DNA of 64,000 nucleotides, taken from NCBI GenBank assembly GCA_964518305.1, contig CAZFDK010000008.1, forward strand, positions 14,252-78,251, given 5' to 3'. The translations under genes were made by a program, and so were the position numbers. Below are positions 3,636 to 48,820 of the stretch, in pieces; the first letter of the stretch is position 1; every line of letters begins with the position of its first letter. This stretch comes from an uncultured Gemmatimonadota bacterium. Lineage in GTDB: Bacteria; Gemmatimonadota; Gemmatimonadetes; Palauibacterales; Palauibacteraceae. Under the pieces are notes generated by a model. That model saw nothing but the letters and a program-made list of their open reading frames with translations, was not told where the DNA came from and did no database searches.

Positions 3636-6113
3636 TCACCGTGGCGTGAGCACATAGCGGCGGCCGACCTCCCGCTCCCGCCGATCCCGCGGTAGATACA
3701 TCGGGATCAGCTCTCCCTCCCCCCACCGTCGCGACATGTCGCCGTAGTGCTCGCTGAACGGATTACCGCTCTGGCCCGTGGGCAGGAGGAACCGCGCCTC
3801 CGGGCCGTCGGGCCGGAGCTCCGCCACGAAGCGCTCCGTGGGACCGTAGTCGCTGATCCACGGCGGGCGCCACGATCCGCCGCCGATATCACCCCACCGG
3901 CCGTAATCGTCGGGGCGCAGGGTGTGGGGTGCGCCGGGCCCCGGGTAGGGTCCCACGTCGAAGTCGAACAGGGCGTCGAGCCACGGCACGCGCCCCAGGG
4001 GATGCCGGTGCACCTCCCGGTGCAGCTCTCCCCAGGGCCGGTCGCCCACCGCGGCCACGGCGTCCTCCATGGCGAGCTCCTCCAGGCCGGCCAGCGTCTC
4101 ACGCTCCGGCGTCGCCACGTCGTCCACCCACGCTCCGCCGCCCTCGCCCTCCAGGATCCTGAGCAGCGCGCCGTCGGGAAAGTAGGCCCAGCGCCCGCCT
4201 CCCCCGTATTCGTCGGCGGCGATCCGATCACGGAGGGCGTACAGCCAGGCATAGAAGAGGGGGGCACCGCGGGCGTCGGCGTCCACGCGCCGATCCCAGT
4301 CGGAGAGGAGGGCCGCCGCCGAGTCAGCTCCTGTCCGCCGAGCAGCGGACACTGCACGGTCCAGTACGCGGTCCGCGAAGAGACTCCGGACGTCTCGGGA
4401 AAGGGAGGCCGTGGAGCTTGGCGTCCAGGAGGCGGTACCCGAGAGGCGCTCGGCCAGCCGCCGGGCCCGAAAGGGGAGCGGATAGTCCCGGCCCACCACG
4501 CCATACAGCCCCGGCGCCTGAAGGTTGTTTGCGGTGGCGAAGTACCCCCGCTCCGGGTTCCGCCCCGCGGGGTGTGCCGATGCCGGCCAGAGGCCGCTCC
4601 ACCCCCCGCTCCAGCGCGGCGCCGGCACGGGGAGGGCACCGGACCACCCGGGTCGAACCGGGATCCTCCCGCTCAGCCGATAGCCCGTGTTCCCCCGTCG
4701 GTCGGCGAAGACGACGTTCTGGTGCGGCGACGAGAAGTCCCTCACCGCGCTGTCGAAGGCGGCGGCCGTCCGGGCCCGGTTCATCGCCAGGAGGCCGCGC
4801 GGCCCTCCCACCGTCTCGGCCGGGAGCCAGCGCGCGGAGAGGGGCGCGTCGAGCCCCTCGACGGCGTCGGTGATCACCGGTCCGCGTGTCGTGGAGCGCA
4901 CCCGGTGCACCACGGGGCTCTCCCGCCCCCGGACCCGGATCGTCTCCGGACGGACGGCGAAGGGGCGCAGGCTGTCACCGTCCCGGTAGCGGCGCCCCTC
5001 CGGCCCGACCTCCTCCCGCGCGAAATCGATGTCGTCCACCATGCCGTTGGTGAACCCCCAGGCAACGCCGCGATTGAAGCCGACCACGACCCCCGGCACG
5101 CCGGGCAGGGTGAGGCCTCCCGCGGAATAGCTCCGGCCGGCGGAGATCGATGCCAGGTACCAGGTGGCCGGGGCCCGCAGCCCCAGGTGCATGTCGTTGG
5201 CCACGATCGGATGGCCGCTCCGGGTGTGCTCGCCGCCCAGGACCCACGCGTTGGAGGCGCTCCTGGCCGACAGGCGACCCAGGAACACCAGTGGATCCCA
5301 GCGGTCGGCTCCCCGCCCCTCCGCGGGGTATCGCTCCGGGCGCGTGCCCTCCGGGGCCGCGTTCGATCGGGACGGAACGGAGTCCGCCGCCCACGGTGGC
5401 TCGCCCCCCGAAGCTCGCTCCACCCCCTCGGGGAGCGGCACGCTGTCGGCCAGGATGGTCGGTGCCCACTCCGGATAGCCTGCCTCCAGGAACCGCAGCT
5501 TCTCCGGCGGCACGGTCCGGCTCGCATTCCACCGGGAGAGCTCGGTCTCCCAGAAGGTCAGATCCAGGGCCATGACCTTGCCCACCGCCAGGCTGGCCCG
5601 CGCCGACCAGCGGCCGGGCTCGATCCCGAGGATCACGAACTCCGGCGGCCACGGATCCTCCCAAGTCCCGATCCGGGCGTTGACGCCGGCGGCGTAGGCA
5701 ACCAGCAGCTCTCGCTCCCCCGGACCCAGCGAACGCAGCGCCCGTCCGGCCGCGCCCCACAGGTCCAGGGTACGGGACAGCCGGTCCACCGGGAGCGCCT
5801 GCGTCCCGAAGATCTGCGCCAGGCGCCCCCGGGCCGACCTGCGCAGGAGCTCCATCTGCCACAAGCGGTGACTGGCGTGGAGCCAGCCCTGGGCGAAGAG
5901 GGCGTCCGGGAGCGTGTCGGCTCGCACCCTGGGCACGCCCCAGTCGTCGACCCGGACGCTCACCCCGGACGCGGGACCTCCCTCCGTCTCCGCCGGCACC
6001 TCCACTACGCCCGAGGGCGCCTGCAGAGAGGAGCGGAGGTGGAAGTAGCCTCCGGTGGCGGCGAGCCCGGCGAGCACGACGAGCGCGGCGACGGCCGCGC
6101 CCACGCGCCTCAC
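3636..6113 (-). CDS. Penicillin acylase family (Ntn hydrolase, peptidase S45) protein, possibly an acyl-homoserine-lactone acylase
   Basis: Signal-peptide-like N-terminus. The SNAW nucleophile context (SARSASNAWVLGGEHTRSGHPIVANDMHL) is typical of the beta-subunit start. GTG start overlaps the upstream stop (GTGA at 6110-6113). Confidence 0.9.
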   Translation of the reverse strand: MRRVGAAVAALVVLAGLAATGGYFHLRSSLQAPSGVVEVPAETEGGPASGVSVRVDDWGVPRVRADTLPDALFAQGWLHASHRLWQMELLRRSARGRLAQIFGTQALPVDRLSRTLDLWGAAGRALRSLGPGERELLVAYAAGVNARIGTWEDPWPPEFVILGIEPGRWSARASLAVGKVMALDLTFWETELSRWNASRTVPPEKLRFLEAGYPEWAPTILADSVPLPEGVERASGGEPPWAADSVPSRSNAAPEGTRPERYPAEGRGADRWDPLVFLGRLSARSASNAWVLGGEHTRSGHPIVANDMHLGLRAPATWYLASISAGRSYSAGGLTLPGVPGVVVGFNRGVAWGFTNGMVDDIDFAREEVGPEGRRYRDGDSLRPFAVRPETIRVRGRESPVVHRVRSTTRGPVITDAVEGLDAPLSARWLPAETVGGPRGLLAMNRARTAAAFDSAVRDFSSPHQNVVFADRRGNTGYRLSGRIPVRPGWSGALPVPAPRWSGGWSGLWPASAHPAGRNPERGYFATANNLQAPGLYGVVGRDYPLPFRARRLAERLSGTASWTPSSTASLSRDVRSLFADRVLDRAVSAARRTGADSAAALLSDWDRRVDADARGAPLFYAWLYALRDRIAADEYGGGGRWAYFPDGALLRILEGEGGGAWVDDVATPERETLAGLEELAMEDAVAAVGDRPWGELHREVHRHPLGRVPWLDALFDFDVGPYPGPGAPHTLRPDDYGRWGDIGGGSWRPPWISDYGPTERFVAELRPDGPEARFLLPTGQSGNPFSEHYGDMSRRWGEGELIPMYLPRDRREREVGRRYVLTPR

Positions 6114-8671: not shown

Positions 8672-10477
8672 TCAGTCGCCCACCTCCAGCAGGGCCATGA
8701 AGGCCTCCTGGGGCACGTCGACCGTGCCCACCTTCTTCATCCGCTTCTTCCCCTCCTTCTGACGCTCGAGGAGCTTCCGCTTCCGCGTCACGTCTCCGCC
8801 GTAGCACTTGGCCGTGACGTTCTTGCGGCGGGCGGGGAGTGTCTCCCGGGCGACGACCTCGCTGCCGATGGCCGCCTGGATCGGGACCTCGAACATCTGG
8901 CGCGGGATCAGCTCCTTCAGCTTCTGCGTGATCCTCCGGCCGCGGTCGTAGGCGCGGTCGCGGTGCACGATCGTGCTCAGGGCGTCTACCGGATCCTTGT
9001 TGAGCAGGATGTCCAGCTTCACCAGGTCGGACTCCTCGTACCCCACCGGCTCGTACTCCATCGTGGCGTAGCCGCGGGAGACGGACTTCAGTCGGTCGTA
9101 GAAGTCCAGGACGATCTCGGCCAGCGGGAGCTTGTAGACGATCTCCACCCGCTCCGGATCCCGGTATCGCATGTCCTGGTACTCGCCCCGGCGGTCCTCG
9201 CACAGCTTCTGGATGTTTCCGATATGATCGTCGGGCGTCAGGAGGCGCACCCGCACGTAGGGCTCCTCGACCGTCTCGATCTCTGCCCGGTCCGGAAACG
9301 TCGCCGGGTTCTCGACCTCGATCCGCTCCCCGTCGGTCCGCGTGATCCGGTACTCGACGTTGGGGATCGTGGTGATCAGGTCCAGGTCGAACTCACGCTC
9401 CAGCCGCTCCTGGACGATCTCCATGTGGAGCAGGCCGTTGAAGCCGCAGCGGAACCCGTAGCCCAGGGCCTCCGACGTCTCGGGCTCGTACCCGAGGCTG
9501 GCGTCGTTGAGGCTGAGCTTCTCCAGGCCGTCGCGGAGGGCCTCGAAGTGATCGGACTCGGTGGGGTGGAGCCCGGCGTACACCATGGGCTTCACCTCCT
9601 TGTAGCCCGGCAGCAGCTCGTCGGCCCGGTCGTCGGCGTCCAGGATGGTGTCACCGACCTTCGTGTCGTGAATCTGCTTGATCTGGGCGGTCAGGTATCC
9701 CACCTCGCCGGTGGAGAGCTCCTCCGTGGACTGCATTCCCAGCCGCAGGTAGCCGACATCGTCTACCTCGTAGACGGAGTCGTTGGCCCCGAAGGTGATC
9801 TCCATGCCCGGGCGCACGACTCCGTCCACGACGCGGATGAACGGGACGGCCCCCCGGTACTTGTCGTAGAAGGAGTCGAAGATGAGGGCGCGCAGCGGCG
9901 CATCGGTCCGGCCCGAGGGATCCGGGACCCGGTCCACCACGGCCTCGAGGATCTGGTCGATGTTCGTCCCCTCTTTGGCGGACGCCAGGATGACTTCCTC
10001 GGGCTCCTTGCCCAGCAGGTCGCAGACCTCCATGCGCAGGTCCTCGGGCTGCGCCGAGGGGAGGTCGATCTTGTTGAGGACAGGGATCAGCTCCAGGCCG
10101 GCGTCCATGGCCTGGTACAGCGTGGATATGGTCTGGGCCTCGATGCCCTGGGCAGCGTCGATCACCAGCAGGGCGCCCTCGCAGGCCGCCAGGCTCCGGC
10201 TCACCTCGTACGTGAAATCGACGTGCCCCGGCGTGTCGATGAGGTTCAGCTCGTACTCCTCGCCGTCGCTGGCGGTGTACGGCAGCCGGATGGCGTTCAG
10301 CTTGATCGTGATGCCCCGCTCCCGCTCGAGGTCCATGGAGTCGAGGACCTGCTCCTTCATCTTCCGCCGCTCCACCGCACCGGTCGCCTCCAGTAGGCGA
10401 TCGGCCAGCGTCGACTTGCCGTGATCCACGTGGGCGATGATGGAGAAATTCCGTATGTGGTCCAGGTCGTTGGACAC
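8672..10477 (-). CDS. lepA: Elongation factor 4 (LepA)
   Basis: [30 protein letters not shown] and the LepA-specific C-terminal domain. GTG at 10477 gives 601 aa. ATG at 10624 is the alternative, but the extra 49 codons have clearly lower GC3 (~73% by hand count). Confidence 0.9.
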
Positions 10478-10689
10478 GGAGCTGTCTGGCCTCTGTGGTC
10501 GGGGTGCGTTCAGCCTCTCTCGCGGCTCGTCCGAGCCTCCGGGTTCCGCGGACCGGGGATCGATCTCGCGCCGCCGGCCCCCTCCGGAGCTCGGCTCGGA
10601 ACCGGAACACTCATACCGTGCCATCCGGACGCCGGTCCGGACGCGGGAGGGCGAGCACGTACGCGGACGTCCCGGCTCGGTCCCTCGGA

Positions 10690-11373
10690 TCAGGCTCGCG
10701 GAAAGCGGACGCGGAAGGGACCGTCGCCGGCGTCCCGAGGCTCGACCTCGCCCCCGGCCCGCCGGGCCTGCGCCACGAGCTCCGCCCTCTTCCCTCCACC
10801 CTCCCACGGGGCTCCCGGCCCGACCTCGATCCACGGACCATCGTCGCCGGAGCCCGCCGCCAGGTAGGGCTCCTCCCCCTCCCGGGCCGCGTGGCGGGCG
10901 CCGGAAGCGGCGCCCAGGACCAGCGCCAGGAGGCCCCCTTCCCTGACCCGGGTCGACGAGCCCCCGCCCTCCTCGCCGGCATCCGGAAGGCGCAGGCGCA
11001 GCTCCTGCCCGTCTTCCCGCTCGTCGAGCCGAAAAGCATCGGCCGCCTCTCGCAGGAGCTCGAGCAGGTCGACGCCGGTCCGGGGCTCGTCGGGCGAGCG
11101 CCGGGCCAGGGCGATGAGCATCCGTATGCGTCCGTCCACGCGTCGGATGTTCTGGTCCACCACGCTCGTCAGCCGCTCTGTCTCCTCCTCGTCGCCCTTC
11201 GCAGCCCGCATGCGGATCACCTCCAGATTGACCGTGATGGCCTGGAACGGGTTCTTGAGCTGGTGGGCGATCCGGTCCACGGCCTCGGCCAGGACCGAGC
11301 TCTTCGCCTCGGCGCCCAGGCTCCCCGGATCCTCCGCATCGGGCACCTCCAACCCGCCACCGCGGCCGCTCAC
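10690..11373 (-). CDS. Sensor-less HisKA-domain protein with degenerate ATP-binding domain
   Basis: H-box [13 protein letters not shown]. The following ~130 aa occupy the HATPase position but lack recognisable N, G1 and G2 boxes. GTG start overlaps the MBL gene stop (GTGA at 11370-11373). Confidence 0.55.
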
Positions 11374-12146
11374 AGCTCCACCACGAGGCCGTCGTGAGCC
11401 GGACGAACGCCATCGGGCAGCCGCTCCGCCGTCTCGCCGTGCTCGAGACGGTGGGTCATGTGCGTGAGGAACGTCCTCTCCGCGCCGATCCTCCGGGCAA
11501 CGTCCACGGCCTCCTCCACGTTGAAGTGGATCGGATGGGGGTTGCCGAACCACAGCGCGTTCACCGTCAGCACCCGTACCCCCTCCAGCAGCGGCAGGGT
11601 CTTTTCCGGGATCTCCTTGGCGTCGACGACCACCGCCAGGTCCCCCACACGCAACCCGTAGCTGGTGTAGCTGCCGTGCGGACAGCCGAAGGGCGTGACC
11701 TCGAACCCGGCGGCGGAAAAGGGCTCCCGATCGCGAAAGGACCGGAGTTCCAGGTCCGGGATCGCGCTCCCCGGATCCGGCTCCACCTGCTCCGAGAAGA
11801 TGTAGGGGAATCGGTCCCGGACCTCGTCCCGGTACTCCCGGGCCACGTGCACCGGGAGCGCGTGCTCGGAACGCAGCGTGAAGATCCGGAGGTCGTCGAC
11901 GCCGTGGAGGTGATCGGCGTGGGGGTGGGTGATGAACGCGGAGTCCACCTGCCGCACTCCGGCCTCCACGAGCTGCAGACGCAGCTCGGGAGGGGTGTCC
12001 ACCAGAAGACGCCGGCCGTCCTCCTCGAGGAGCATCCCGTGGCGGGTCCGCTGATTCCGGGGGTCCTCGGAGCGACACACCGCGCACCGACAGCCGATGA
12101 CCGGCACGCCGAAGGAGGTCCCGGTGCCGAGGAATCGGATCTTCAT
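11370..12146 (-). CDS. MBL-fold metallo-hydrolase (PhnP-like)
   Basis: [11 protein letters not shown] metal motif and an N-terminal [18 protein letters not shown] zinc-knuckle-like stretch, as in PhnP-type enzymes. Confidence 0.85.
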
Positions 12147-18214: not shown

Positions 18215-18952
18215 GTGACGGACGTCCGACCTCCACATCTGACGGCCAGCCTCCTGGTCGCGGCGCTCCTCCTCGCCCCGGCCCGACCGTTCCCCGGCCC
18301 GCGGCTCTCCCCTTCGGCGGCGTCCCTCCGGCCGTCCACCCCGACGGACACCATCGTCGAGAGCTTCCACGGTTACGAGTTCGGCACGCCGGCGGACCAT
18401 ATCGGGGAGATCGACATCTCCCGACCCCCCGACGCGCGGATGGACGGCCTCGAGGTCTACGCGCGCTCGCTCCGCTTCATCGGGACGCCGACCCGGGCCT
18501 ACTTCTACCTCGACTCGGCCGATTATCGCCTCCGCCGCGGGAAGCACCTCATCGAGCCCGACGCGTCGTCCTGCGTACGTCAGCTGACGACGCTCCGCCT
18601 CATGGTGGCCGGCACCAACCCGGATCTCAGCGTTCACGTGATCCGCGGCTCCGGTGCGGAACGGAACGAGGTGGGGACAGAGCCCGGCGCCCCGCCGGTC
18701 CAGTGTCCCGGCTTCATGGAGGCGGATGAGGCCCGGGAGTGGTCGGTGCTGTTCCGGAATCCCGACACGGGCGCCGTGGAGGTCCGGATGGAGCTGTTTC
18801 GCCGCGAGGGACAGCCCCGCATTCTCGCCTGCTACCTGAACAGAGACGATTGCGACTGGCCCGATTCCGTGGCTGTCGAGCCGGGGCCGAAGCTGCTGGC
18901 TCCCGGCCGGGGACCGGACACCACGGATGCACGTCGAGAGGAACGAGGATGA
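18215..18952 (+). CDS. Hypothetical secreted protein
   Basis: Signal-like ASLLVAALLLAPA. Starts 2 nt after the upstream stop. Its stop overlaps the next start (ATGA). Confidence 0.5.
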   Translation: MTDVRPPHLTASLLVAALLLAPARPFPGPRLSPSAASLRPSTPTDTIVESFHGYEFGTPADHIGEIDISRPPDARMDGLEVYARSLRFIGTPTRAYFYLDSADYRLRRGKHLIEPDASSCVRQLTTLRLMVAGTNPDLSVHVIRGSGAERNEVGTEPGAPPVQCPGFMEADEAREWSVLFRNPDTGAVEVRMELFRREGQPRILACYLNRDDCDWPDSVAVEPGPKLLAPGRGPDTTDARREERG

Positions 18953-20568
18953 TGGAGACGCAGGAAATGACCACGGACGACAGCGAGGTCCTGGTGGTGG
19001 CGGACCGGGTTCACACGCTCCGACCGGGCGGCCCCGGTACGACGCGCCCTCTGCCCGACGCGGTGCTCGTCCGCTCCGGCGACGTGACCGCCGTGGGACC
19101 GGCCGAGGACCTCAGGGAGGCCGTCCCCGGGATTTCGATCCTGGACCTGCGGGGGAGCGTGATCACGCCCGGCCTGACCGACTCCCACCTCCATCTGCTC
19201 GAGTGGGCACGGGCCCGACGCGAGGTCGACCTCAGCCGCGCCTCCACGCCGGAGGGCGCAGCCGAGGCTGTCGCTCGCGAGGCGCGCGAGGAGAGCGCGG
19301 GATGGATCCGGGGGCACGGCTGGAGCCGCCACCGGTTGAATGGATTCCCGCACCGGAGCGACCTCGACGCACACCTGCCGGAGCGACCGGTCGCGCTCCA
19401 GAGCCACGACATGCACGCCCTGTGGCTCAACAGCGAGGCCCTTCGCCGCCTCGGCCTCGACGAGGAAACGCCCGATCCCGCCGACGGCCGCCTGGTCCGT
19501 GATGACGAGGGCCGGATCACCGGCGTGCTGCTGGAGAAGGCCGTGGAGATCGCCATCGAGGGCATCCCGGAGCCCGGGGACGCGGAGCTCCTCGGGCACA
19601 TTCGCGAGGCCCAGTCGGCCCTGCACCGGATGGGCTTCACGGGCGTCCACTCCATCGAGATGCACGGATCCAGGTTCCGCTCGCTGCGCCTCCTCCGCAG
19701 GCTCCGGGAGCGCGACGAGCTGCGGCTGCGGGTTCTCCAGCATCTGCCCCATGGTCTCCTGGAGGCGGCCGTCGGGCTCGGGCTACGGAGCGGCTACGGG
19801 GACGAGTTCCTGCGGGTGGGGGCGATGAAGTTCTTCCTGGACGGGACGCTCGGCTCCGGAACGGCCTGGCTCGCCGAGCCCGGGACTCGGGCCGGTGCCG
19901 GCGAACCGCTCATGTCCACCTCGGAGTTCCGGGCCCGTGTCGAGTCCGCGGCCGCCGCCGGCCTGTCCAGCGCCGTGCACGCCATCGGCGACGAGGCCGT
20001 CCAGGTGGCGGCGGAATGCCTGAGCGGGGCGGCCACCGGCGACCTGCCGATGCCCCCGCGCGTGGAGCATGCGCAGCTGATCGATCCGGATCGGCTCTCG
20101 CGGGACCTGGCCACCGGTCTCGTCTTCTCCGTGCAACCGTCGCACTTCTTCTCGGACTGGCGCGACGCAGAAGAGCAGTGGGGGGCGGAGCGCTGCCGCG
20201 GGGCTTTCGCCTTCCAGACCCTGCTGGACCGGGACGGAACCCTGGCCTTCGGCTCGGATGCCCCCGTGGAGCCGCCCGACCCCGGGCGAGCGCTCTTCGC
20301 CGCCACCTCCCGCCGGGGGCTCGACGGGGAACCCTCCGGCGGCTGGCACCCGGAGCAGAGGATCTCCGTCCGCGAGGCCTTCAGCGCCCACACGACGGGA
20401 CCGTCGGCGGCAGCCGGCGAGGAAAACCGGACCGGACGCCTGCTTCCCGGATTCCGGGCCGACCTCGTGGCCTGGGACCGCGACCCGCTCTCGGCCGTGG
20501 GGCGGGGACTGCTGGAGATGGAGCCGGTGGCCACAATGGTGGGCGGCGAGGTGGTCTGGCGCAGCTGA
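18949..20568 (+). CDS. Amidohydrolase-family (Amidohydro_3) metal-dependent hydrolase
   Basis: PGLTDSHLHLLEW (HxH), AVHAIGD and FGSDAPVEP motifs. ATG at 18949 follows a GAGGA SD. Confidence 0.85.
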   Translation: MMETQEMTTDDSEVLVVADRVHTLRPGGPGTTRPLPDAVLVRSGDVTAVGPAEDLREAVPGISILDLRGSVITPGLTDSHLHLLEWARARREVDLSRASTPEGAAEAVAREAREESAGWIRGHGWSRHRLNGFPHRSDLDAHLPERPVALQSHDMHALWLNSEALRRLGLDEETPDPADGRLVRDDEGRITGVLLEKAVEIAIEGIPEPGDAELLGHIREAQSALHRMGFTGVHSIEMHGSRFRSLRLLRRLRERDELRLRVLQHLPHGLLEAAVGLGLRSGYGDEFLRVGAMKFFLDGTLGSGTAWLAEPGTRAGAGEPLMSTSEFRARVESAAAAGLSSAVHAIGDEAVQVAAECLSGAATGDLPMPPRVEHAQLIDPDRLSRDLATGLVFSVQPSHFFSDWRDAEEQWGAERCRGAFAFQTLLDRDGTLAFGSDAPVEPPDPGRALFAATSRRGLDGEPSGGWHPEQRISVREAFSAHTTGPSAAAGEENRTGRLLPGFRADLVAWDRDPLSAVGRGLLEMEPVATMVGGEVVWRS

Positions 20569-20663
20569 GCCCGCCCCTCCGGCAGCCGAGAACGGCCGGG
20601 CCGCCGGATCCCGGGGGGCGGGGGGCTTGCCGAACAAAAGCCGAAAGTATATTCTGCGACCCT

Positions 20664-22331
20664 GTGAGAAACCTGCCCATCCACGACCGCGGCGCCGCCG
20701 AGAACCCGCCGAACCGGTTCGAGCGCCTCTCCGTCTCCCGGGAGGCGTGGACCGGGGAGGAGGATCCGGACCCGGAGACGAAGCTCTACCGGGACGACAC
20801 CCGGTCCATCCTGTCCACCAACGACAGCCCCGACGTCCCCTTCGAGGTGAGCCTCAACCCGTACCGGGGATGCGAGCACGGGTGTGTCTACTGTCTCCGG
20901 GGTGACACCCCGGTGCTCATGGCCGACGGCGCCACGCGTCTCATCCGAGACATCAGGCCGGGCAACGAGATCTACGGTACGGAGAGGCGCGGCCCCTATC
21001 GGCAGTACGTCCGGACCCGGGTCCTGGACGCCTGGCGGACCCTCAGCCCGGCGGTGCGCCTCACCGTCGCCGACGGGACGACGCTGGTCGCCGGGGAGGA
21101 CCACCGCCTCCTGACGCGACGTGGGTGGAAGTTCATGACAGACGCCGAGCAGGGAGCCGGCCGTCGCCCCCACCTCACCGTCAACGACCAGCTGCTCGGC
21201 ACCGGGGCGTTCGCGCCCTCCCCGGAACACACCGAGAGCTATTCACGGGGCTATCTCTCCGGCGTGATTCGTGGAGACGGACACCGGGCCAGCTACCAGT
21301 ACGAGCGAGCGGGAAGGGCCCACGGGAACCAGCACCAGTTCCGCCTCGAGCGAGATCTTGCCGGCCAGGCGCTGAAGAGCAGCGCTGACCTGAACGTCGA
21401 GTCCATCGAGGAGCTCGGTGTGGAGCTCCCCATGTACGACCTCACCACGGGCACGGGCGACTTCATCGCCGCCGGGATTGTGAGCCACAACTGCTACGCC
21501 CGGCCCACCCACGAGTACCTGGGCCTGTCGGCGGGTCTCGACTTCGAGACCCGCATCTTCGTGAAGGAGGATGCCCCCGCCCTGCTCAGGGAGGAGCTGG
21601 AGGATCCCTCCTGGGAGCCGCGGCCCGTCGCCATGAGCGGCGTCACCGACCCGTACCAGCCCGCGGAGCGCAGGCTGGAGATCACCCGCGGTTGCCTGCA
21701 GGTGCTGGCGGAGTTCAGGAACCCCGTGGGCATCGTCACCAAGAACCGGCTCGTGACCCGGGACCGGGACCTGCTGGCCGAGCTGGCGGAGCACGACGCC
21801 GCCCGGGTCAGCGTGTCGGTCACCACCCTGGACGCGGACCTGAAGATGAAGATGGAGCCCCGGGCCCCGGCGCCGGGTCGGAGGCTGGACGCCATCGAGC
21901 AGCTGGCCGAGGCTGGCGTCCCCGTGGACGCCCTGGTGGCCCCGGTGATCCCGGGCCTCACCGACCACGAGATCCCGGAGATCCTCGCCGCCGTGGCCGA
22001 CGCCGGGGCCGGCCACGCCAGCTACGTCCTCCTGCGTCTTCCTCACGGCGTCTCCGACCTGTTCGAGAACTGGCTGGAGCACCACTTCCCGGACCGGAAG
22101 CAGAAGGTGCTGAATCGGATCCGGGACACGCGGGGAGGGCGGCTCAACGACCCGCAGTTCGGGAGCCGGATGAGCGGGGAGGGGCCGTTCGCCCGCCAGA
22201 TCTCGGAGATGTTCGAGATCTCGGCCCGGCGCCACGGCCTGGACGGGAGCCCCGGCGGCCTGTCCACGGACGCCTTCCGCCGCCCCACGACCGGCGGCGG
22301 TCAGGTGGAGATGTTCGCCGACCGCGCGTAG
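20664..22331 (+). CDS. PA0069-type radical SAM protein, interrupted by an intein
   Basis: RGAAENPPNRFE N-terminus. GCEHGCVY-[intein]-CYARPTHEYLG restores CX3CX2C. The C-terminal two thirds are typical of the family. GTG at 20664 is the only in-frame start after the upstream gene. About 355 aa without the intein. Confidence 0.85.
   Translation: MRNLPIHDRGAAENPPNRFERLSVSREAWTGEEDPDPETKLYRDDTRSILSTNDSPDVPFEVSLNPYRGCEHGCVYCLRGDTPVLMADGATRLIRDIRPGNEIYGTERRGPYRQYVRTRVLDAWRTLSPAVRLTVADGTTLVAGEDHRLLTRRGWKFMTDAEQGAGRRPHLTVNDQLLGTGAFAPSPEHTESYSRGYLSGVIRGDGHRASYQYERAGRAHGNQHQFRLERDLAGQALKSSADLNVESIEELGVELPMYDLTTGTGDFIAAGIVSHNCYARPTHEYLGLSAGLDFETRIFVKEDAPALLREELEDPSWEPRPVAMSGVTDPYQPAERRLEITRGCLQVLAEFRNPVGIVTKNRLVTRDRDLLAELAEHDAARVSVSVTTLDADLKMKMEPRAPAPGRRLDAIEQLAEAGVPVDALVAPVIPGLTDHEIPEILAAVADAGAGHASYVLLRLPHGVSDLFENWLEHHFPDRKQKVLNRIRDTRGGRLNDPQFGSRMSGEGPFARQISEMFEISARRHGLDGSPGGLSTDAFRRPTTGGGQVEMFADRA
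20892..21491 (+). mobile_element. Intein (200 aa) with vestigial LAGLIDADG block
   Basis: Starts CLRGDTPVLMADG (block A). GEDHRLLT is block-B-like. RGYLSGVIRGDGH is LAGLIDADG-like. MYDLTTGTGDFIAAGIVSHN gives blocks F/G and is followed by Cys+1. In frame, exactly 600 nt. Confidence 0.82.
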
Positions 22332-22400: not shown

Positions 22401-22802
22401 CTAGCAGGTAGAGTGGAAGAGCCCTCCCACGGGCTCGTCCTCGGCCAGGTCGTTGTAGAGCTCCACGGCCTCCTTCGTCGGGAGGACGTGGGCCGGGATG
22501 CCGCGGCGCTCCAGCATCTGGAGCGTCTCATCCTTCACTCGGAGCCGCTCGTTCATCCCCCGGCTCAGGACCACCTCCTCGGCGCCGTGCTCCAGCAGCT
22601 CCTCCACGTCCTCGGGCTGGATGCCCGGCGAGTGGGAGGTGCCGGTCTCGTTCCAGTCCCACCCGCGCGAGCCCCCGGGCCAGGTCTTGGCGTCCCTGTA
22701 CGGTGTGTGCGCTCCCTCGACTCGGACCTCTCCCCAGGAGATCCCCTCGATACGGGGAGAGCGCGAATCTTCGGACCGGACGTCTGCAGACATCTCCGTC
22801 AC
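22401..22802 (-). CDS. Mth938-like (DUF498/NDUFAF3-like) domain protein
   Basis: ISWGEVRVEG...DAKTWPGG...EVVLSRGMNERLRV pattern. GTG start overlaps the ytxJ stop (GTGA). Confidence 0.68.
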   Translation of the reverse strand: MTEMSADVRSEDSRSPRIEGISWGEVRVEGAHTPYRDAKTWPGGSRGWDWNETGTSHSPGIQPEDVEELLEHGAEEVVLSRGMNERLRVKDETLQMLERRGIPAHVLPTKEAVELYNDLAEDEPVGGLFHSTC

Positions 22803-23176
22803 CTCCCGATGGCCTCGTTGAGAGCGTCCTCCGTCACCGCCCCGTGGGACGCCGACCAGGTCGGACGGCCGTCCCGGAGCACGATGACCTGGGGCGATTC
22901 GTGCCGCACGTCGAACTCGCGGGCCACCCTGTCCGAGAGCTCCCGCTGCTCCGGGACGTCTATCCGATACACCGGCAGATCCGGCCGGGAGCGGGCGAAC
23001 TCCTCGACTTCACCGATGGCCCGGCGGCAGACCATGCAGCGCGAGCTGTGCTTGTAGAGCACCGACGGCCCGTCTGCCGTCGTCCGGAGACGGTCCAGGC
23101 CGTCCGGGGTGAGCCGTGGGAGCTCGTCTCGAACGCCCATGCCGAAGAAGACGTAGGGTAGATCTCGAATCTTCAT
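22799..23176 (-). CDS. ytxJ: YtxJ-like monothiol bacilliredoxin (DUF2847, thioredoxin fold)
   Basis: VLYKHSSRCMVC active-site context and ESPQVIVLRDG. SD GGGAGGGATGAGGA. Confidence 0.72.
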   Translation of the reverse strand: MKIRDLPYVFFGMGVRDELPRLTPDGLDRLRTTADGPSVLYKHSSRCMVCRRAIGEVEEFARSRPDLPVYRIDVPEQRELSDRVAREFDVRHESPQVIVLRDGRPTWSASHGAVTEDALNEAIGR

Positions 23177-23414
23177 TCCTCATCCCTCCCAAGTTGCCGC
23201 CGCCAGCGCCGGTCGGCCAGCACCACGGAGGTCCCGACCCGGCGCTCTGAGATGGACCGCCCCTCCAGGGGACTACGCCCTCACGCTTCCCCACGGCGGT
23301 GAGGACGAGTGGAAAGGCCAGGGCGTACACGAGACCGTCCTGCCACCAGCGTCGCTGCTTTCACCCACAGGGGCCGCTCGCGACCGTAGCGCACGGAGGA
23401 ACGCGCTCTCCGGA

Positions 23415-35286: not shown

Positions 35287-35883
35287 GTGAACGGCCCGAA
35301 GTCCCCCGACCAGAAGCGGCTCTTGCTGCTCGTGGGCCTGGGACTGATCGGTGTGGTCGTCGGCGGCATGGCCGACCTGTATCTGGACGATCCGGAGACG
35401 TGGTGGAGTCTCCATGTGCTCGTGGAAGCGGGCATTGTGCTCCTCAGCCTGGGGCTCGCCCTCTACCTGTTGCGGGAATGGTCGCGTACGGAGGAGGTCC
35501 TGGAGCGGACCGAGGCGGAGCTGGAGCGGCACCGGGAGGAGAGGGACCGGTGGAGGGAGCGGGCCCGGACCTTCCTGGAGGGGCTCGGGCGGGAGATCGA
35601 CCGCCAGTTCGACGAGTGGAGCCTCACCCCTTCGGAGAAGGAGGTCGCCCTCCTGCTCATCAAGGGCTACTCGCACAGGGAGATCGCGAAGAAGACGGGG
35701 AGGAGCGAGCGCACCTCCCGGCAGCACGCTGGCTCGGTCTACGAGAAAGCCGACCTCGCCGGCCGGGCCGAGCTCGCGGCGTTCTTCCTCCAGGACCTCA
35801 TGCTGCCCGACGGCCAGCGCGGCGCCGGCGAGCGGGACCCCGCCGACTCGGCGTCCGACTCCGGAGTCAGCTCTCGGCGCTGA
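35287..35883 (+). CDS. Membrane-anchored LuxR/GerE-family transcriptional regulator (2 TM + coiled coil + HTH)
   Basis: LTPSEKEVALLLIKGYSHREIAKKTGRSERTSRQHAGSVYEKA. GTG at 35287 was chosen because the upstream 168 nt of the ORF are AT-richer and look non-coding. The 3' end overlaps the convergent RND gene by 17 nt. Confidence 0.68.
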   Translation: MNGPKSPDQKRLLLLVGLGLIGVVVGGMADLYLDDPETWWSLHVLVEAGIVLLSLGLALYLLREWSRTEEVLERTEAELERHREERDRWRERARTFLEGLGREIDRQFDEWSLTPSEKEVALLLIKGYSHREIAKKTGRSERTSRQHAGSVYEKADLAGRAELAAFFLQDLMLPDGQRGAGERDPADSASDSGVSSRR

Positions 35884-38800
35884 CCGCGGCCGCCGCGCGC
35901 TCTGGCTTTTCCGAGGTCCTCGGGGCGCCCCGCCCCTCCGCCCGGCTCTCCTCTCCGAAGACGGCTTCCTGGAAGCGGCTCGTCCCCTCTTCGAAGAGGG
36001 AATAGAGCACGGGCACCAGGAGCAGGGTGAGGAAGGTGGCGAAGAGAATGCCGACGATGACGGCGATCGCCATGGGGCCCCACCAGGCAGCCTGCTCCCC
36101 GCCCCAGTACAGCTCCGGCTGCAGGCCCGTGTAGAGGCCGAAGAAGTCGAAGTTGAGGCCCATGGCCAGCGGGACCAGGCCCAGCGCCGTGGTGATGGCC
36201 GTGAGCACCACCGGGCGGAAACGCGTCGTCCCGCCCTCCATCAGCGCCTCGCGCACCCCGAGGCCGTCCCGGTCCCGAAGGATCTCCACGTAGTCCAGCA
36301 GGACCACGCCGTTGTTCACCACGATTCCGGCCAGCGAGATGATTCCGACCCCGGTCATGACGATGCTGAAGGGCATCTGGAAGAGCAGCAGCCCCACCAG
36401 CACTCCGGAGGTCGACATGACCACCGAGGTGAGGATGATCAGGGGTTTGGTGACGGAGTTGAACTGGGAGACCAGGATGAGGGCGATCAGCATGAGCGCG
36501 GCCCCGAAGGCGGTCGAGAGGAAAGACCGCGCCTCGGTCTGCTCGGTCTGCTGTCCCGTGTACCGGATCTCGTAGCCCGTCGGCAACTCCTTCCGGAACC
36601 CCGACAGCGTCTGCTGCACCTCGGCCAGCACCGCGTTGCTGTTGAACGCGGACCGGACGTCGGAGCTGATCGTCGCCACCCTCTCCATGTCCTTCCGCTT
36701 GATCGTCCCGAGCCCCTCCTCCACCTCCCAGTCGGCCACCGACACCAGGGGCACCTGGGTCCCCCGGGCGTTCGTGATCGTCAGATTCTCCAGGGAGGAG
36801 AGCGTCTCCCGATCCTCCTCGGCCAGCCGCACCTCGATGTCGTACTCGTCCTCGCCGGTCCGGTACTCCCCGGCCTTGAGCCCCTGCACTCCGGTGCGCA
36901 CGGCCCGCCCGATCTGCGACGTGGAGAGCCCGAAGAGAGCCGCCTCCTCCCGGTCGATCTTCACCGACAGCTCAGGGCGCACCTCGTCCATGTCGTTCTC
37001 CAGGTTCACCAGCTTCGAGTAGACCGGCGCGTCCTGGATGATCGCCATGGCACTGTCCGCCAGGCGGTTCAGGCGGTCGGGGTCCGGTCCGACGATCTCG
37101 ACGTTCACCGGCAGTCCGGTGGGAGGTCCCTGCTGGGGCTGCTCCACGGAGATCTCCGCGCCCGAGATCCCGCGCGTCACGGTGGAGCGGATCTCCTCGA
37201 TCGTCCGGAACGAGCTCTGGGTCCGGTACTGGTAATCCTCGAGGTTCAGGGTGACGCGACTTTCGCTCGGGCTGGACGGACCGCCACCGCCGAAGCCCGA
37301 CGCGCCTCCGCCGCCGCCCACCGTCGTGACCACGGAGGTGACGTCCTTCCAGCCGTCCACGGAGGAAAGTCGGTCCTCCACCCTGTTCGCGATCCGGTCG
37401 GTGAACTGAACGCGGCTGCCGACGCCGGACTCGATCGACACGATGGCCTGGTTGGGCGGAATGTCCTCCGGGAAGAAGGTGACGCCGGCGTTCCACCGGC
37501 CGAAGGCCATGAAGCTCCCGATCAGGACGACGCCCGAGATGGCCAGCACGATCCCCCGGTGATCCAGCGCCCAGTCCAGCGCGCGCTCGTAGGGTCGCAG
37601 GAGGATCTCGAAGCCGCGGCTCTGGAACCAGTCCGCCGCCCCCCGGAGGACGAAGCGGTAGAGGAGGAAGAGCAGCAGCCCGGTGGCGGCGAAGAGCACC
37701 GCCGTGAGCCAGTTGGCCGCCCCCACCAGCAGCAGGCCCAGGGCCCCGGTGGCGTACAGCAGCCACCGGCCCGTACGGGTCAGGTCCACGCTCCTGCCCT
37801 CGCCACCCTTCGGCAGCAACAGCGCGCACAGGGTGGGTACGATCACCAGCGCTACGAAGAGCGAGCTGGAGAGGGTGATGATGAGGGTGAGCGGCAGGTA
37901 GCCCATGAACTCGCCCACCGTCCCGGGCCAGAAGAGCAGGGGGCCGAAGGCGGCCAGCGTGGTGAAGGTTGCGATGATGATCGGCGCCGCCACCTCGCCG
38001 GTGGCCTTCTTCGCCGCCCGGACGCGGTCCCACCCCTCCTCGGCGTAGCGATAGATGTTCTCCACCACCACGATGGCGTTGTCCACCAGCATCCCCAGGG
38101 CCAGGATGAGGCTGAACAGAACCACCATGTTCATGGATACGCCCGCCACCCAGAGGACGATGAACGAGAGGAGCATGGAGGTGGGGATGGAGATCGCCAC
38201 GAACACCGACGTGCGGAGCCCCAGGAAGAAGAGCAGCACCGCGAGGATCAGGATGAGCCCGGCGACGATGTTGTTCTCCAGGCTCGTCACCATCCGCTCG
38301 ATCTGGTCCGTCTGCTCCGAGGTGTAGGCCACGGTCGTGCTCGGAGGCATCTCGGAGCGCATCTCGTCCACGGCGTCCCGCACCTGGCGCGAGGTCTTCA
38401 GGATGTTGGCGCCGGACCGCTTCACGACCGACAGCGTCACCACCGGCGAGCCGTCGAGGCGGGCGAAGCTCTCCCGGTCGGCGAAGCCGAACTCCACGTC
38501 CGCCACGTCGCGCACGTAGACCGGGCGTTCGCCCTTGCGCGCCACCACCAGATCCTCGATGCGCTGCGGGTCCTCGAACCGCCCGCCCACCCGGAGCAGG
38601 TACTCCTGGGCCCCGGCGTCGATGGAACCGCCCGGAACGTCGACGTTCTCCGACTGGATCGTGCCGACCAGCTGGCTCAAGGAGAGGCCGTAGAACTTCA
38701 GATCGGTCAGGTCGACGCTCACCCGGACCTTTCGCTCCCGGCCGCCCCGCAACTCGGCCCGGAGAACCCGGTTGATCTGCTCCAGGCGGTCCTGGAGGTC

Positions 38801-39361
38801 CTTGGCGACTTCCTTGAGCCGGACCAGGCTGTAGTCCCCGGACAGGTTGACCTGCATGACGGGGACTTCGTCGGTGTTGAACTCGATGATCTGAGGGTCT
38901 TCGGCCTCGTCCGGTAGCTCCGGCCGGGCCAGGTCCACCTTCTCCCTCACCTTCTGGAGGGCCTCGTTCATATCCACCGAGGAGGAGAACTCCACGGTGA
39001 TGTTCGAGTAGCCCTCGATCGTCGTGGAGCTGAACTCGTCGATCTCGGAGATCCCCTGCAGCTCCTCCTCCAGCGGCCGCGTGACCAGCGTCTCCATGTC
39101 GGAGGGGGAGACGCCCGGATACACGGTGCTCACGGCCACCGTGGGAATCTCGACCTCGGGGAAGGACTCCTTCGGTATGCTCCCGTAGGCGAGCACCCCC
39201 GCCACGGTGATCAGCACGAAGAGCACCACCACGGCGGTGGAGTGCTCCACGGCGAAGGAGGTGAACGGGTTCTCCTTGAAGCGGTCCAGGAACGACGCGA
39301 GCTCCGCCGCGTCGCCCTGGGCCTCGATCTCGTCCGGAGTCGGCGTGTCGGACGTGGTCAC
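35867..39361 (-). CDS. RND efflux transporter permease (AcrB/CzcA superfamily)
   Basis: 1164 aa with 12-TM architecture and typical RND motifs (e.g. AAILRFRPVVMT-like TTRFRPVVLTAITT). GTG start overlaps the MFP stop (GTGA). Confidence 0.92.
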   Translation of the reverse strand: MTTSDTPTPDEIEAQGDAAELASFLDRFKENPFTSFAVEHSTAVVVLFVLITVAGVLAYGSIPKESFPEVEIPTVAVSTVYPGVSPSDMETLVTRPLEEELQGISEIDEFSSTTIEGYSNITVEFSSSVDMNEALQKVREKVDLARPELPDEAEDPQIIEFNTDEVPVMQVNLSGDYSLVRLKEVAKDLQDRLEQINRVLRAELRGGRERKVRVSVDLTDLKFYGLSLSQLVGTIQSENVDVPGGSIDAGAQEYLLRVGGRFEDPQRIEDLVVARKGERPVYVRDVADVEFGFADRESFARLDGSPVVTLSVVKRSGANILKTSRQVRDAVDEMRSEMPPSTTVAYTSEQTDQIERMVTSLENNIVAGLILILAVLLFFLGLRTSVFVAISIPTSMLLSFIVLWVAGVSMNMVVLFSLILALGMLVDNAIVVVENIYRYAEEGWDRVRAAKKATGEVAAPIIIATFTTLAAFGPLLFWPGTVGEFMGYLPLTLIITLSSSLFVALVIVPTLCALLLPKGGEGRSVDLTRTGRWLLYATGALGLLLVGAANWLTAVLFAATGLLLFLLYRFVLRGAADWFQSRGFEILLRPYERALDWALDHRGIVLAISGVVLIGSFMAFGRWNAGVTFFPEDIPPNQAIVSIESGVGSRVQFTDRIANRVEDRLSSVDGWKDVTSVVTTVGGGGGASGFGGGGPSSPSESRVTLNLEDYQYRTQSSFRTIEEIRSTVTRGISGAEISVEQPQQGPPTGLPVNVEIVGPDPDRLNRLADSAMAIIQDAPVYSKLVNLENDMDEVRPELSVKIDREEAALFGLSTSQIGRAVRTGVQGLKAGEYRTGEDEYDIEVRLAEEDRETLSSLENLTITNARGTQVPLVSVADWEVEEGLGTIKRKDMERVATISSDVRSAFNSNAVLAEVQQTLSGFRKELPTGYEIRYTGQQTEQTEARSFLSTAFGAALMLIALILVSQFNSVTKPLIILTSVVMSTSGVLVGLLLFQMPFSIVMTGVGIISLAGIVVNNGVVLLDYVEILRDRDGLGVREALMEGGTTRFRPVVLTAITTALGLVPLAMGLNFDFFGLYTGLQPELYWGGEQAAWWGPMAIAVIVGILFATFLTLLLVPVLYSLFEEGTSRFQEAVFGEESRAEGRGAPRTSEKPERAAAAVSAES

Positions 39362-46708: not shown

Positions 46709-48820
46709 ATGCCATCTAGCGCATCCCTCCCCCGTTTCTCGGTCGCCTGTGCCGTCGGCGTCCTCCTCGCCCTCGTGGCCCCCGCGCCCCCGGCGGTGTC
46801 ACCGGCCGCGGCCCAGCCGGCCGATGCCGATTCCACGCTCCGGCTGGAGCAGTACCTGGACATGGAGGACGTCTCCGACCCGCGCCTCTCGCCGGACGGA
46901 GACCGGGTGGTCTACGTCCGGAGCTGGATCGACCCCATGCACGACACGCGCAAGTCCGCGATCTGGATCATGAGCGCCGACGGCAGCCGGGACCGTCACC
47001 TGGTGGAGGGAAGCTCCCCGCGGTGGTCTCCCTCCGGCGACCGGCTCGCGTTCCTGGCCTGCGGCACCCCCGGCGGCGACCGGAGCGCCCTGCAGGAGTG
47101 CGGCGAGGACGCCGAGCGCCAGATCTGGGTCCGGATCATGGAAGGCGAGGGCTCGGGATCCGTGACCCAGGTGACGCGGCTCACCGAGGGAGCGGGTGAC
47201 ATCGAGTGGTCCCCGGACGGCGAGCGCATCGCCTTCAGCCGCTTCCTCGAGGACGAGGACACCTACCGGGTGGACCTCCCGGAGCGGCCGGAGGGCGCAG
47301 AGTGGACGGAGGCGCCGCGGGTGGTGGACCGGCTGGACTACCGACAGGACGGCGTCGGCTTCACCCGGGACGGCCACGATCACGTGTTCACGGTCTCCGC
47401 CGGTGGAGGCACACCGAGGCAGGTGACCCACGGCCCCTACGACCACGGGGACCCGCGGTGGAGCCCGGACGGATCGACGATCTACGTGGACGGCCTCCGA
47501 ACCGAGGACGCCGCCTACGAAATCCAGGAGTCCGAAGTCTACGCGGTGGACCTCGACACCCGAGAGATCACGGCCCTCACCGACCGGAACGGCCCGGACG
47601 GCAACCCGGCGCCGGGGCCCGGCGGCGAGTGGATCGCCTATACCGGCGCCGACTCCACCGGCCAGACTTACCAGACCTCCAACCTCTACGTCATGCGCTC
47701 CGACGGCTCCGGCGTCCGGGAGCTGGCCGCCGACTTCGACCGCTCCCCAGGCGATCTCATCTGGGCCCCCGACGGGAGCGGCGTCTACTTCACCGCCGAG
47801 AACCGGGGCACCGAGGACCTGTACTTCGCCGGGGTGAACGACACCTTCCGGCGCGTCACCGAGGGGCAGCACGTGCTGCGCACCACGGACATCGACGACG
47901 ACGGGACGGCCGTGGGCGTGATGGAGACGCCGAGGCGGCCCGACGACCTGGTCACCTTCGAGCTCACGCAGCCGGATCCCGAGTACCGGACCGCCGTGAA
48001 CGAGGACGTCCTGGACGACGTCCAGCTCGGCGACGTGGAGGAGATCTGGTACGAGTCGGCGGACGGGTTCCGGATCCAGGGGTGGATCGTGAAGCCGCCG
48101 AACTTCGATCCCTCCCGGCAGTATCCGCTCATCCTCCACATTCACGGCGGCCCGCACGCCATGTACGACGTGGGCTTCAGCTTCCGCTACCAGCACTTCG
48201 CCTCGGAGGGCTACGTCACCCTGTACACCAACCCCCGGGGATCCACCGGCTACGGCACCGAGTTCGGGAACGCCATCGACCACGCCTACCCCGGCCGGGA
48301 CTACGACGACCTGATGACCGGGGTGGACAGCCTCATCGACCGGGGCTACATCGACTCCGACAACATGCTGGCCACCGGGTGCAGCGGAGGGGGCGTGCTC
48401 TCGAGCTGGATCGTCACCCAGACCGACCGATTCGCCGCCGCCGTGGTCCGCTGCCCCGTCACCGACTGGCTCTCCTTCGTCGGCACCACCGACAGCCCCT
48501 ACTGGTACTACAACTTCCGCGAGTTCCCCTGGGAGGACCCGACCGAGCACCTGGAGCGCTCGCCCCTGATGCAGGTCGGCCAGGTGGAGACGCCGACCCT
48601 GCTCATGACCGGGGTGAACGACCTCCGGACGCCGATGCCCCAGACCGAGGAGTTCTACCAGGCGCTCAAGCTTCGGAAGGTGCCCACGAAGATGATCCGG
48701 ATGGAGGACGAGTGGCACGGCACCGGATCCAACCCGTCGAACTTCATGCGCACCCAGCTCCACATCCTGAAGTGGTTCGAGGAGTACATGAGCGACGACA
48801 TGAAGAAGAGGATGCAGTAA
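46709..48820 (+). CDS. S9-family serine peptidase (prolyl oligopeptidase / acylaminoacyl-peptidase type) with N-terminal beta-propeller
   Basis: Signal peptide. PD40-like WSPDG repeats. Nucleophile elbow GCSGGG. C-terminal D and H context (NDLRTP, EWHG). Confidence 0.9.
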   Translation: MPSSASLPRFSVACAVGVLLALVAPAPPAVSPAAAQPADADSTLRLEQYLDMEDVSDPRLSPDGDRVVYVRSWIDPMHDTRKSAIWIMSADGSRDRHLVEGSSPRWSPSGDRLAFLACGTPGGDRSALQECGEDAERQIWVRIMEGEGSGSVTQVTRLTEGAGDIEWSPDGERIAFSRFLEDEDTYRVDLPERPEGAEWTEAPRVVDRLDYRQDGVGFTRDGHDHVFTVSAGGGTPRQVTHGPYDHGDPRWSPDGSTIYVDGLRTEDAAYEIQESEVYAVDLDTREITALTDRNGPDGNPAPGPGGEWIAYTGADSTGQTYQTSNLYVMRSDGSGVRELAADFDRSPGDLIWAPDGSGVYFTAENRGTEDLYFAGVNDTFRRVTEGQHVLRTTDIDDDGTAVGVMETPRRPDDLVTFELTQPDPEYRTAVNEDVLDDVQLGDVEEIWYESADGFRIQGWIVKPPNFDPSRQYPLILHIHGGPHAMYDVGFSFRYQHFASEGYVTLYTNPRGSTGYGTEFGNAIDHAYPGRDYDDLMTGVDSLIDRGYIDSDNMLATGCSGGGVLSSWIVTQTDRFAAAVVRCPVTDWLSFVGTTDSPYWYYNFREFPWEDPTEHLERSPLMQVGQVETPTLLMTGVNDLRTPMPQTEEFYQALKLRKVPTKMIRMEDEWHGTGSNPSNFMRTQLHILKWFEEYMSDDMKKRMQ

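Follow-up and report, generated by a model that had tools for sequence, protein, structure and literature searches.

A predicted class-1 intein without endonuclease in the [4Fe-4S]-binding loop of a Gemmatimonadota radical SAM enzyme

The closest described relatives of the element analysed here are inteins of radical S-adenosylmethionine (SAM) enzymes. Table 1 of Novikova et al. 2016 (Mol Biol Evol, PMC4760082) places COG1533 "SplB" among the common bacterial intein hosts, and the survey reports 48 SplB inteins, from Actinobacteria only; the radical SAM cluster motif goes unmentioned in its main text. NCBIfam holds a dedicated exception model, NF038136, for the "intein-containing Rv2578c family radical SAM protein", a name already carried by some database entries. 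Here we analyse a 64,000-nucleotide stretch of DNA from an uncultured Gemmatimonadota bacterium (contig CAZFDK010000008.1; hereafter the window) in which a radical SAM gene is interrupted by 200 codons. The insert is very probably a class-1 intein, now without its endonuclease, that sits in the [4Fe-4S]-binding loop of a PA0069/COG1533 radical SAM enzyme, and it is predicted to splice.

The intein of the Pyrococcus abyssi radical SAM enzyme MoaA is said to be inserted within a CX3CX2C motif too. The primary paper on it is reportedly that of Callahan et al. 2011 (Nat Struct Mol Biol). In this intein a native disulfide between Cys-3 and Cys1 blocks splicing until it is reduced (PMC3922620, PMC10663303). 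A literature search on inteins with radical SAM, Rv2578c, PA0069 and CX3CX2C found no dedicated study of the PA0069/Rv2578c intein.

An insert in the cluster-binding loop of a PA0069-type enzyme

The precursor gene spans 20664-22331 on the forward strand, including the stop codon, and begins with GTG. Translation gives a 555-aa protein that is matched over its whole length by NF033668 (rSAM_PA0069; E 1.3e-140, 468 bits against a cutoff of 360), which places it in the PA0069 family, and by Pfam Radical_SAM (E 2e-16). It has the radical SAM core, with a CX3CX2C motif that is contiguous in the host only without the intein. An identical protein, P0001, is predicted on an 88-kb NCBI contig; look-up in the contig collection gave no exact match to the window protein, and a single scan of genome contigs yielded 4 loci, all from outside the window's own lineage. 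An upstream in-frame ATG at 20016 would extend the open reading frame (ORF) to 771 aa, and the additional 20016-20663 (forward strand) overlaps the 3' end of an amidohydrolase gene (18739-20568). Because the aligned homologues all start at MRNLPIHGRGA, the true start is the GTG at 20664 and not this ATG.

We number extein codons as in the precursor, count intein residues from Cys1, and give the positions flanking the insert minus and plus signs. The N-extein (20664-20891, forward strand; aa 1-76) ends in NPYRGC70EHGC74VY and holds the first two [4Fe-4S] ligand cysteines, C70 (20871-20873) and C74 (20883-20885), the latter at position -3 in the raw sequence. The intein (20892-21491, forward strand; 200 aa, codons 77-276) follows Tyr-1 (TAC, 20889-20891), begins with Cys1 (TGT, 20892-20894) and ends with His199-Asn200 (Asn200 AAC, 21489-21491). 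The C-extein (21492-22331, forward strand; aa 277-555) starts with C277-YARPTHEYLG and makes up the rest of the radical SAM barrel. Its first residue, Cys+1 (TGC, 21492-21494), is at once the position of the splice nucleophile and the third cluster cysteine.

Taking out these 600 nucleotides leaves CEHGCVYC and a protein of 355 aa, in which the contiguous peptide of the predicted ligated exteins is CEHGCVYCYARP. This is exactly the length of P0090, an intein-free relative with 94% identical exteins that aligns without a gap over the junction (GCVY/CYARPTHEY, the slash marking the insertion point). A sequence-only reading of this DNA had already described a 555-aa PA0069-type protein with an intein at 20892-21491, and translation and the raw-sequence codons bear these limits out to the nucleotide. 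Its further claims, that removal restores C-E-H-G-C-V-Y-C and about 355 aa and that a class-1 intein lies just before the third cysteine of CX3CX2C with Cys+1 doubling as a ligand position, agree with the length and gapless alignment of P0090, with the fold of the insert and with its conserved residues. The checks it proposed, namely a search for a Hint or intein domain, alignment with intein-free homologues and a survey of homologues for the same insertion point, likewise support it: a Hint fold is found by structure prediction, the junction with P0090 is gapless and the site recurs in nearly all of the best matches (see below).

An AlphaFold2 model of the insert, built from an alignment of 57 relatives, has a mean predicted local distance difference test score (pLDDT) of 85, rising above 90 over residues 1-110 and 160-200. 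Foldseek returns 57 matches in the PDB at E<=1e-3, and those listed are all inteins or other Hint domains, which identifies the Hint fold. The top matches are the NpuDnaB, SspDnaB, Mtu RecA and gp41-1 inteins, with template modelling scores (TM-scores) normalised to the target of up to 0.85. A sequence search of the PDB with the intein gives only marginal matches (Mtu RecA, E ~0.35). Positions 76-207 of NF038136 are matched by the 200 aa alone (E 2.3e-57).

The insert carries every residue expected of a class-1 intein: Cys1, the block-B His, the block-F Asp, the terminal His-Asn pair and a Cys at +1. Block A is CLRGDTPVLMADG and contains Cys1 (20892-20894); block B reads LVAGEDHRLLT and contains His71 (21102-21104); blocks F and G form MYDLTTGTGDFIAAGIVSHN, with Asp183 at 21438-21440 and His199-Asn200 at 21486-21491. 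Across the 57 aligned relatives no variation is seen at Cys1, Asp183, Asp190, His199, Asn200 and Cys+1, conservation of His71 reaches 98%, and the window copy has zero changes at catalytic positions. On the host side, C-7, C-3 and Y/W-1 are conserved in the 57 aligned hosts, in which A+3, R+4 and P+5 are invariant.

The same site is occupied in many relatives. An insert at exactly CX3CX2/C...HN/C is present in 118 of the 120 best database matches, mostly 342-351 aa long with PF14528 and PF14890. Together with the match to NF038136 and the Hint fold, this recurrence excludes a chance resemblance. To sample the family without bias towards carriers we searched 1.84 billion representatives with the intein-free protein as query and took the top 150 matches. 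These comprise 121 intein-free proteins, 5 with a complete intein and 6 N-terminally truncated intein-bearing ORFs; all 11 inserts are at the same site, and they amount to about 8% of the matches that cover the junction (11/132). The source names of carriers include Gemmatimonadota, Rubrobacteraceae, Solirubrobacterales, Thermoanaerobaculia, Pyrinomonadaceae, Armatimonadota, Omnitrophica, and Beta- and Gammaproteobacteria.

Many Rv2578c- or PA0069-type intein genes on very long metagenomic contigs are called as fragments of 250-340 aa (P0137, P0139, P0170, P0185, P0188 and P0195, on contigs of 158-748 kb). Each fragment breaks in the endonuclease region and continues into an Arg- and Pro-rich tail that resembles out-of-frame translation; these ORFs could be assembly indel errors or genuine pseudogenes. 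Naturally split inteins were considered as the source of the short matches of 140-350 aa in a search with the intein only, and were rejected because the C-terminal tails look out of frame, which suggests frameshifted ORF calls.

The host fold was assessed by modelling the intein-free P0090 with 24 other family members (pLDDT 85). The nearest solved structures in a fold search are spore photoproduct lyase entries (E ~1e-9, TM-score ~0.56), followed by other radical SAM enzymes. A sequence search of the PDB with the spliced-type protein found no match, and a profile search found weak radical SAM matches that the fold search resolved to spore photoproduct lyase. The host thus resembles spore photoproduct lyase in its predicted fold, in keeping with the COG1533 label "SplB / DNA repair photolyase" that many homologues carry at JGI.

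Endonuclease decay and descent of the intein

The intein consists of an N-terminal splicing lobe (20892-21206, forward strand; aa 1-105; pLDDT 93-98 over most of its length) and a C-terminal splicing lobe (21363-21491, forward strand; aa 158-200; pLDDT 92-98) on either side of a remnant of a LAGLIDADG homing endonuclease (21207-21362, forward strand; aa 106-157; pLDDT 48-56), which was recognized by alignment with relatives. This remnant of about 50 aa is predicted to be disordered. Alignment of the window copy with 700-aa relatives that bear PF14528 (LAGLIDADG_3) shows that the first catalytic motif, YLSGVIRGDG, is kept at 21252-21281. Between L152 and E153 (nucleotides 21347 and 21348) lies a deletion scar, at which the relatives have a further stretch of about 145 aa that contains the second motif, FLAGIFDAEG. 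The window intein therefore does not encode the complete two-motif endonuclease present in its full-length relatives, and a Pfam scan of the window protein detects no LAGLIDADG match, PF14528 included. The sequence-only reading had seen a canonical class-1 layout of 200 aa; the splicing blocks are indeed present, and the layout itself is that of a LAGLIDADG intein from which about 145 aa are missing and some 50 aa remain. On this alignment evidence the window element is a decayed LAGLIDADG intein rather than a purpose-built mini-intein.

More than 100 relatives carry an intein of 342-351 aa with both endonuclease motifs at this site. Among the full-length relatives conservation of the two catalytic motifs (...IRGDG and ...FDAEG) is 90% or higher, suggesting that these are probably active homing endonucleases. 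Other shortened inteins at the site measure 315, 223, 188 and 182 aa, and by manual residue count the minis in Rv2578c-type hosts measure about 130-150 aa. As judged from their sequences, these derivatives, together with the 200-aa copy of the window, represent several independent shortenings.

To place the window copy among close relatives we compared four syntenic loci (L005-L008); the nearest named relative belongs to Candidatus Palauibacterales (Gemmatimonadota). In all four the gene is preceded by an amidohydrolase gene and followed by a DUF498 gene, and the window gene has the same neighbours. The intein is 200 aa long in L006, 182 aa in L007 and 188 aa in L008, and is absent from L005, where the empty site of the intein-free allele (L005:4001-5068) reads ...GGCTGCGTTTAT/TGCTACGCCCGC.... 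The window, L006 and L007 have the same deletion scar. The middle segment of L008 is a diverged, low-complexity linker that is further decayed and remains in frame; it was also considered as a frameshifted endonuclease remnant, which was rejected because no alternative frame restores similarity.

Selection was estimated region by region as the ratio of non-synonymous to synonymous divergence (dN/dS, Nei-Gojobori) for pairs of four diverged alleles. The ratio is 0.05-0.13 for the exteins (0.02-0.12 for the C-extein), 0.08-0.22 for the N-terminal splicing lobe, 0.07-0.26 for the C-terminal lobe and 0.31-0.76 for the endonuclease remnant. Constraint is thus strong on the host gene and evident in the splicing lobes but not in the endonuclease remnant. 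Such a contrast would be expected of a gene whose enzyme can still be produced only through splicing, and from it we infer that splicing occurs and is still needed to make the enzyme.

The insertion appears old. GC content is 0.69 in the intein against 0.69 and 0.72 in the exteins, and GC content at third codon positions is 0.865 against about 0.95; near-equal GC with a slightly lower third-position value fits an old, ameliorated insertion. Together with a deletion common to diverged alleles, these values agree with the earlier proposal that the insertion is not recent. In the extein tree two intein-free proteins, P0090 and P0124, nest with 100% bootstrap support within the mini-intein clade, to which the intein-bearing P0003 is sister; the intein-free allele of L005 has this nested position. 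Precise intein loss has therefore occurred, as the homing cycle predicts. A short repeat, AC/TG(C), is present at both junctions (TAC/TGC at 20889-20894 and AAC/TGC at 21489-21494) and may have helped to mediate precise deletion.

The L006 and L007 loci are 95-99% identical over 9.6 kb, and identity falls to 0.85-0.92, the minimum of the locus, in the intein (L006:4171-4770). Synonymous divergence (dS) between the two is 0.33 in the intein and 0.07 in the exteins. This excess suggests that the history of the intein may not be purely vertical. The L006/L007 intein seems either to have had a partly separate history, through recombination or allele swapping, or to have evolved faster than its flanks, in both cases without a working endonuclease.

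The window intein very probably derives from a widespread family of LAGLIDADG inteins of about 345 aa, whose homing endonuclease is predicted to target the highly conserved DNA for GC(V/A/I)Y/CYARP. In the window lineage it was very probably fixed first, after which some 145 aa of its endonuclease were deleted, and vertical inheritance followed. Given that loss, the window intein should no longer be able to home.

Splicing, cluster ligation and rival explanations

The window intein most likely follows the standard four-step class-1 chemistry, as its conserved residues indicate. Cys1 would undergo an N-S acyl shift, Cys+1 would attack in a trans-thioesterification, Asn200 would cyclise with help from His199, and an S-N shift would complete the reaction. 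The product would be a 355-aa enzyme with a contiguous C70-X3-C74-X2-C motif, able to bind the cluster and SAM.

Several observations weigh against the identification as a splicing-competent intein. The generic intein hidden Markov models fall short of their curated thresholds: on the insert Pfam Intein_splicing scores 22 bits against a cutoff of 35.8 (E 1.2e-4), TIGR01445 21.1 bits against 24.5 and TIGR01443 14.3 against 15.6. The Thr of the block-B TxxH motif is replaced by Gly in the window (GEDH), at a position where relatives have Ser or Gly. Otherwise conserved non-catalytic sites of the window copy bear the substitutions D25N, L59V and G84D, and residue 194 is Ala where relatives have Asn or Asp. 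Synonymous divergence, moreover, is higher in the intein than in the exteins, 4.5-fold for the L006-L007 pair. Because the generic profiles remain below threshold, the proof of identity rests on the family alignment and the fold. The replacement of the TxxH Thr looks like tolerated variation, given the residues found in relatives, and the substitutions of the window copy, which also include the non-catalytic change V196I, are few and mostly conservative. The 200 aa could in principle stay in the mature protein, either as an accessory domain specific to the lineage or as a bacterial intein-like (BIL) domain. BIL domains do have a Hint fold, and 6y75 and 2lwy are among the structural matches. 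However, the insert interrupts the motif with which a conserved enzyme binds its cluster, it possesses Cys1, His-Asn and Cys+1, and it belongs to a family that carries or formerly carried a LAGLIDADG endonuclease. These features, like its scarless absence from a relative with 94% identical exteins, define inteins and are not those of BIL domains. That absence, seen as a gapless junction, effectively refutes retention in the mature protein, which we regard as extremely improbable. It is also very unlikely, if a little less so, that the intein is splicing-dead and the host gene an inactivated pseudogene heading for loss. The endonuclease has already been destroyed, some conserved non-catalytic positions are changed in the window copy, and frameshifted fragments are common among database relatives, all of which would be in line with such decay. 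Yet the 555-codon frame is intact with all catalytic residues kept, and purifying selection acts on exteins and splicing lobes alike over four diverged alleles (dN/dS 0.05-0.13 and 0.07-0.26); the fragments with frameshifts belong to other lineages and could also be products of sequencing or assembly errors.

A different question is whether a splicing intein at this position serves its host. C74 and Cys1 form a CXXC pair (C74-V-Y-C77, C77 being Cys1), so that at the sequence level the precursor has the -3 Cys of a redox trap. In the precursor Cys1 also fills the third-cysteine position, and the linear motif C70-X3-C74-X2-C77 is still complete. The claim of the sequence-only reading that the unspliced precursor cannot assemble the cluster is for this reason too strong, although such an inability is plausible. 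Judging from this arrangement, splicing may be redox-sensitive through the C74(-3)-X-X-Cys1 pair, and a disulfide, or a bound metal or cluster, at Cys1 would block the first splicing step. One could picture the intein as a conditional switch of benefit to the host, by which an oxygen-labile enzyme matures only in reducing or Fe-S-replete conditions. We think this rather unlikely, and likewise its proposed routes of blockage, through a C74-Cys1 or Cys1-Cys+1 disulfide or through metal or cluster bound to C70-X3-C74-X2-Cys1. The C(-3)-X-X-C1 spacing is the same as in the native MoaA intein of P. abyssi and in the redox trap engineered in Ssp DnaE, C-3, C1 and C+1 are invariant in 57/57 relatives, and a non-homing mini-intein persists with its splicing blocks under purifying selection. 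But ligation of the cluster fully accounts for the invariance of C-3 and C+1, and purifying selection on splicing blocks is expected of any intein in a needed gene. In addition, the intein is missing from most of the family (121 of 132 representatives), a close relative nested among carriers has shed it cleanly, and the endonuclease-bearing relatives resemble ordinary selfish homing elements. In a gated system a C74-Cys1 disulfide, or a cluster or metal on the pseudo-motif, would freeze splicing with Cys+1 held nearby. That enzyme maturation is in fact gated at splicing by redox state or by Fe-S or metal supply, the endonuclease-less intein being kept for post-translational sensing rather than surviving as a relic, is a proposal from sequence that we consider quite unlikely to hold.

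Whatever its function, the site is chemically distinctive. The +1 nucleophile and the -3 residue both double as [4Fe-4S] ligands, which links splicing and cofactor assembly chemically and makes this a clean natural case. To our knowledge the idea of a redox or metal gate has so far been supported mainly by the P. abyssi MoaA example, and the present family offers a convenient system for testing inteins as such gates in oxygen-labile enzymes. Specialist interest is confined to this putative coupling of splicing chemistry with [4Fe-4S] ligation or redox state.

A gene for a monothiol bacilliredoxin, BrxC/YtxJ (22799-23176, reverse strand; PF11009, E 3.6e-27), follows the precursor gene two genes downstream, past the DUF498 gene. 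BrxC was considered as a functional or redox partner and rejected: the gene is present in L006 and L007 and absent at that position from L005 and L008, so its proximity is probably coincidence.

Genomic setting and known inteins

The large Pfam-matching ORFs of the window are ordinary chromosomal genes and include those for a penicillin amidase (3636-6113, reverse strand), LepA (8672-11413, reverse strand), an AcrB-type transporter (35867-39361, reverse strand) and an S9 peptidase (46709-48820, forward strand). Intein profiles had no match among the subset of window ORFs scanned with them. The window (1-64000) contains no transfer RNA or transfer-messenger RNA gene, and no Rfam family scores above its gathering threshold in it. 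In L006 and L007 an acetyltransferase gene and a 78-aa ORF lie between the BrxC and DUF123 genes (L006:6483-7240). The corresponding part of the window, at about 23177-23414, gives no alignment over L006 6544-7144, and no acetyltransferase was found among the ORFs scanned there. This looks like a small difference in gene content among close relatives.

The sequence-only reading had left open whether the insertion site was already catalogued. Inteins of this host family are, at the same position in NF038136 and at the level of the host family in Table 1 of PMC4760082. The new elements of the present locus are modest: the Gemmatimonadota host, the stage of decay and the putative link to cluster and redox state. 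With the COG1533 SplB inteins of that survey, as its Table 1 and main text present them, the window intein shares the host superfamily and differs in its Gemmatimonadota host and its deleted endonuclease, so that with this locus the known hosts of COG1533 inteins are no longer confined to Actinobacteria. The inteins covered by NF038136 have a homologous N-terminal lobe, a homologous host core and the same start position, and Rv2578c-type database proteins read ...RGCSHACTYC/...VVSHN/CFARPTH. The window protein falls outside that model, with 464 bits against a cutoff of 700; its host is of the PA0069 subfamily, and it lacks the stretch that the model devotes to the endonuclease.

The solved Npu and Ssp DnaB inteins, the Mtu RecA splicing domain and gp41-1 have the Hint fold in common with the window intein (TM-scores normalised to the target of 0.68-0.85) and the same class-1 residues, that is Cys1, the block-B His, the block-F Asp and the terminal His-Asn. 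Sequence identity to them is 14-20%, and the window intein keeps its endonuclease remnant of about 50 aa. Like the P. abyssi MoaA intein, it interrupts an oxygen-sensitive radical SAM enzyme and combines C(-3) with a catalytic Cys1, here as C(-3)-V-Y-C1. Unlike the window host, P. abyssi MoaA is archaeal and belongs to another radical SAM family, and a sequence relationship between the two inteins was not detected. Redox control is demonstrated for the MoaA intein, whereas for the window intein it is inferred only.

The window intein is a Gemmatimonadota copy, in the PA0069 subfamily and at the stage of endonuclease decay, of an already catalogued intein family. The length variants at this one site, from about 130 to 351 aa, provide a ready series for studying endonuclease decay and the formation of mini-inteins. 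Set against the homing cycle of invasion, fixation, endonuclease decay and loss, every stage of which is visible at this site, the family is a textbook instance with nothing unusual about it.

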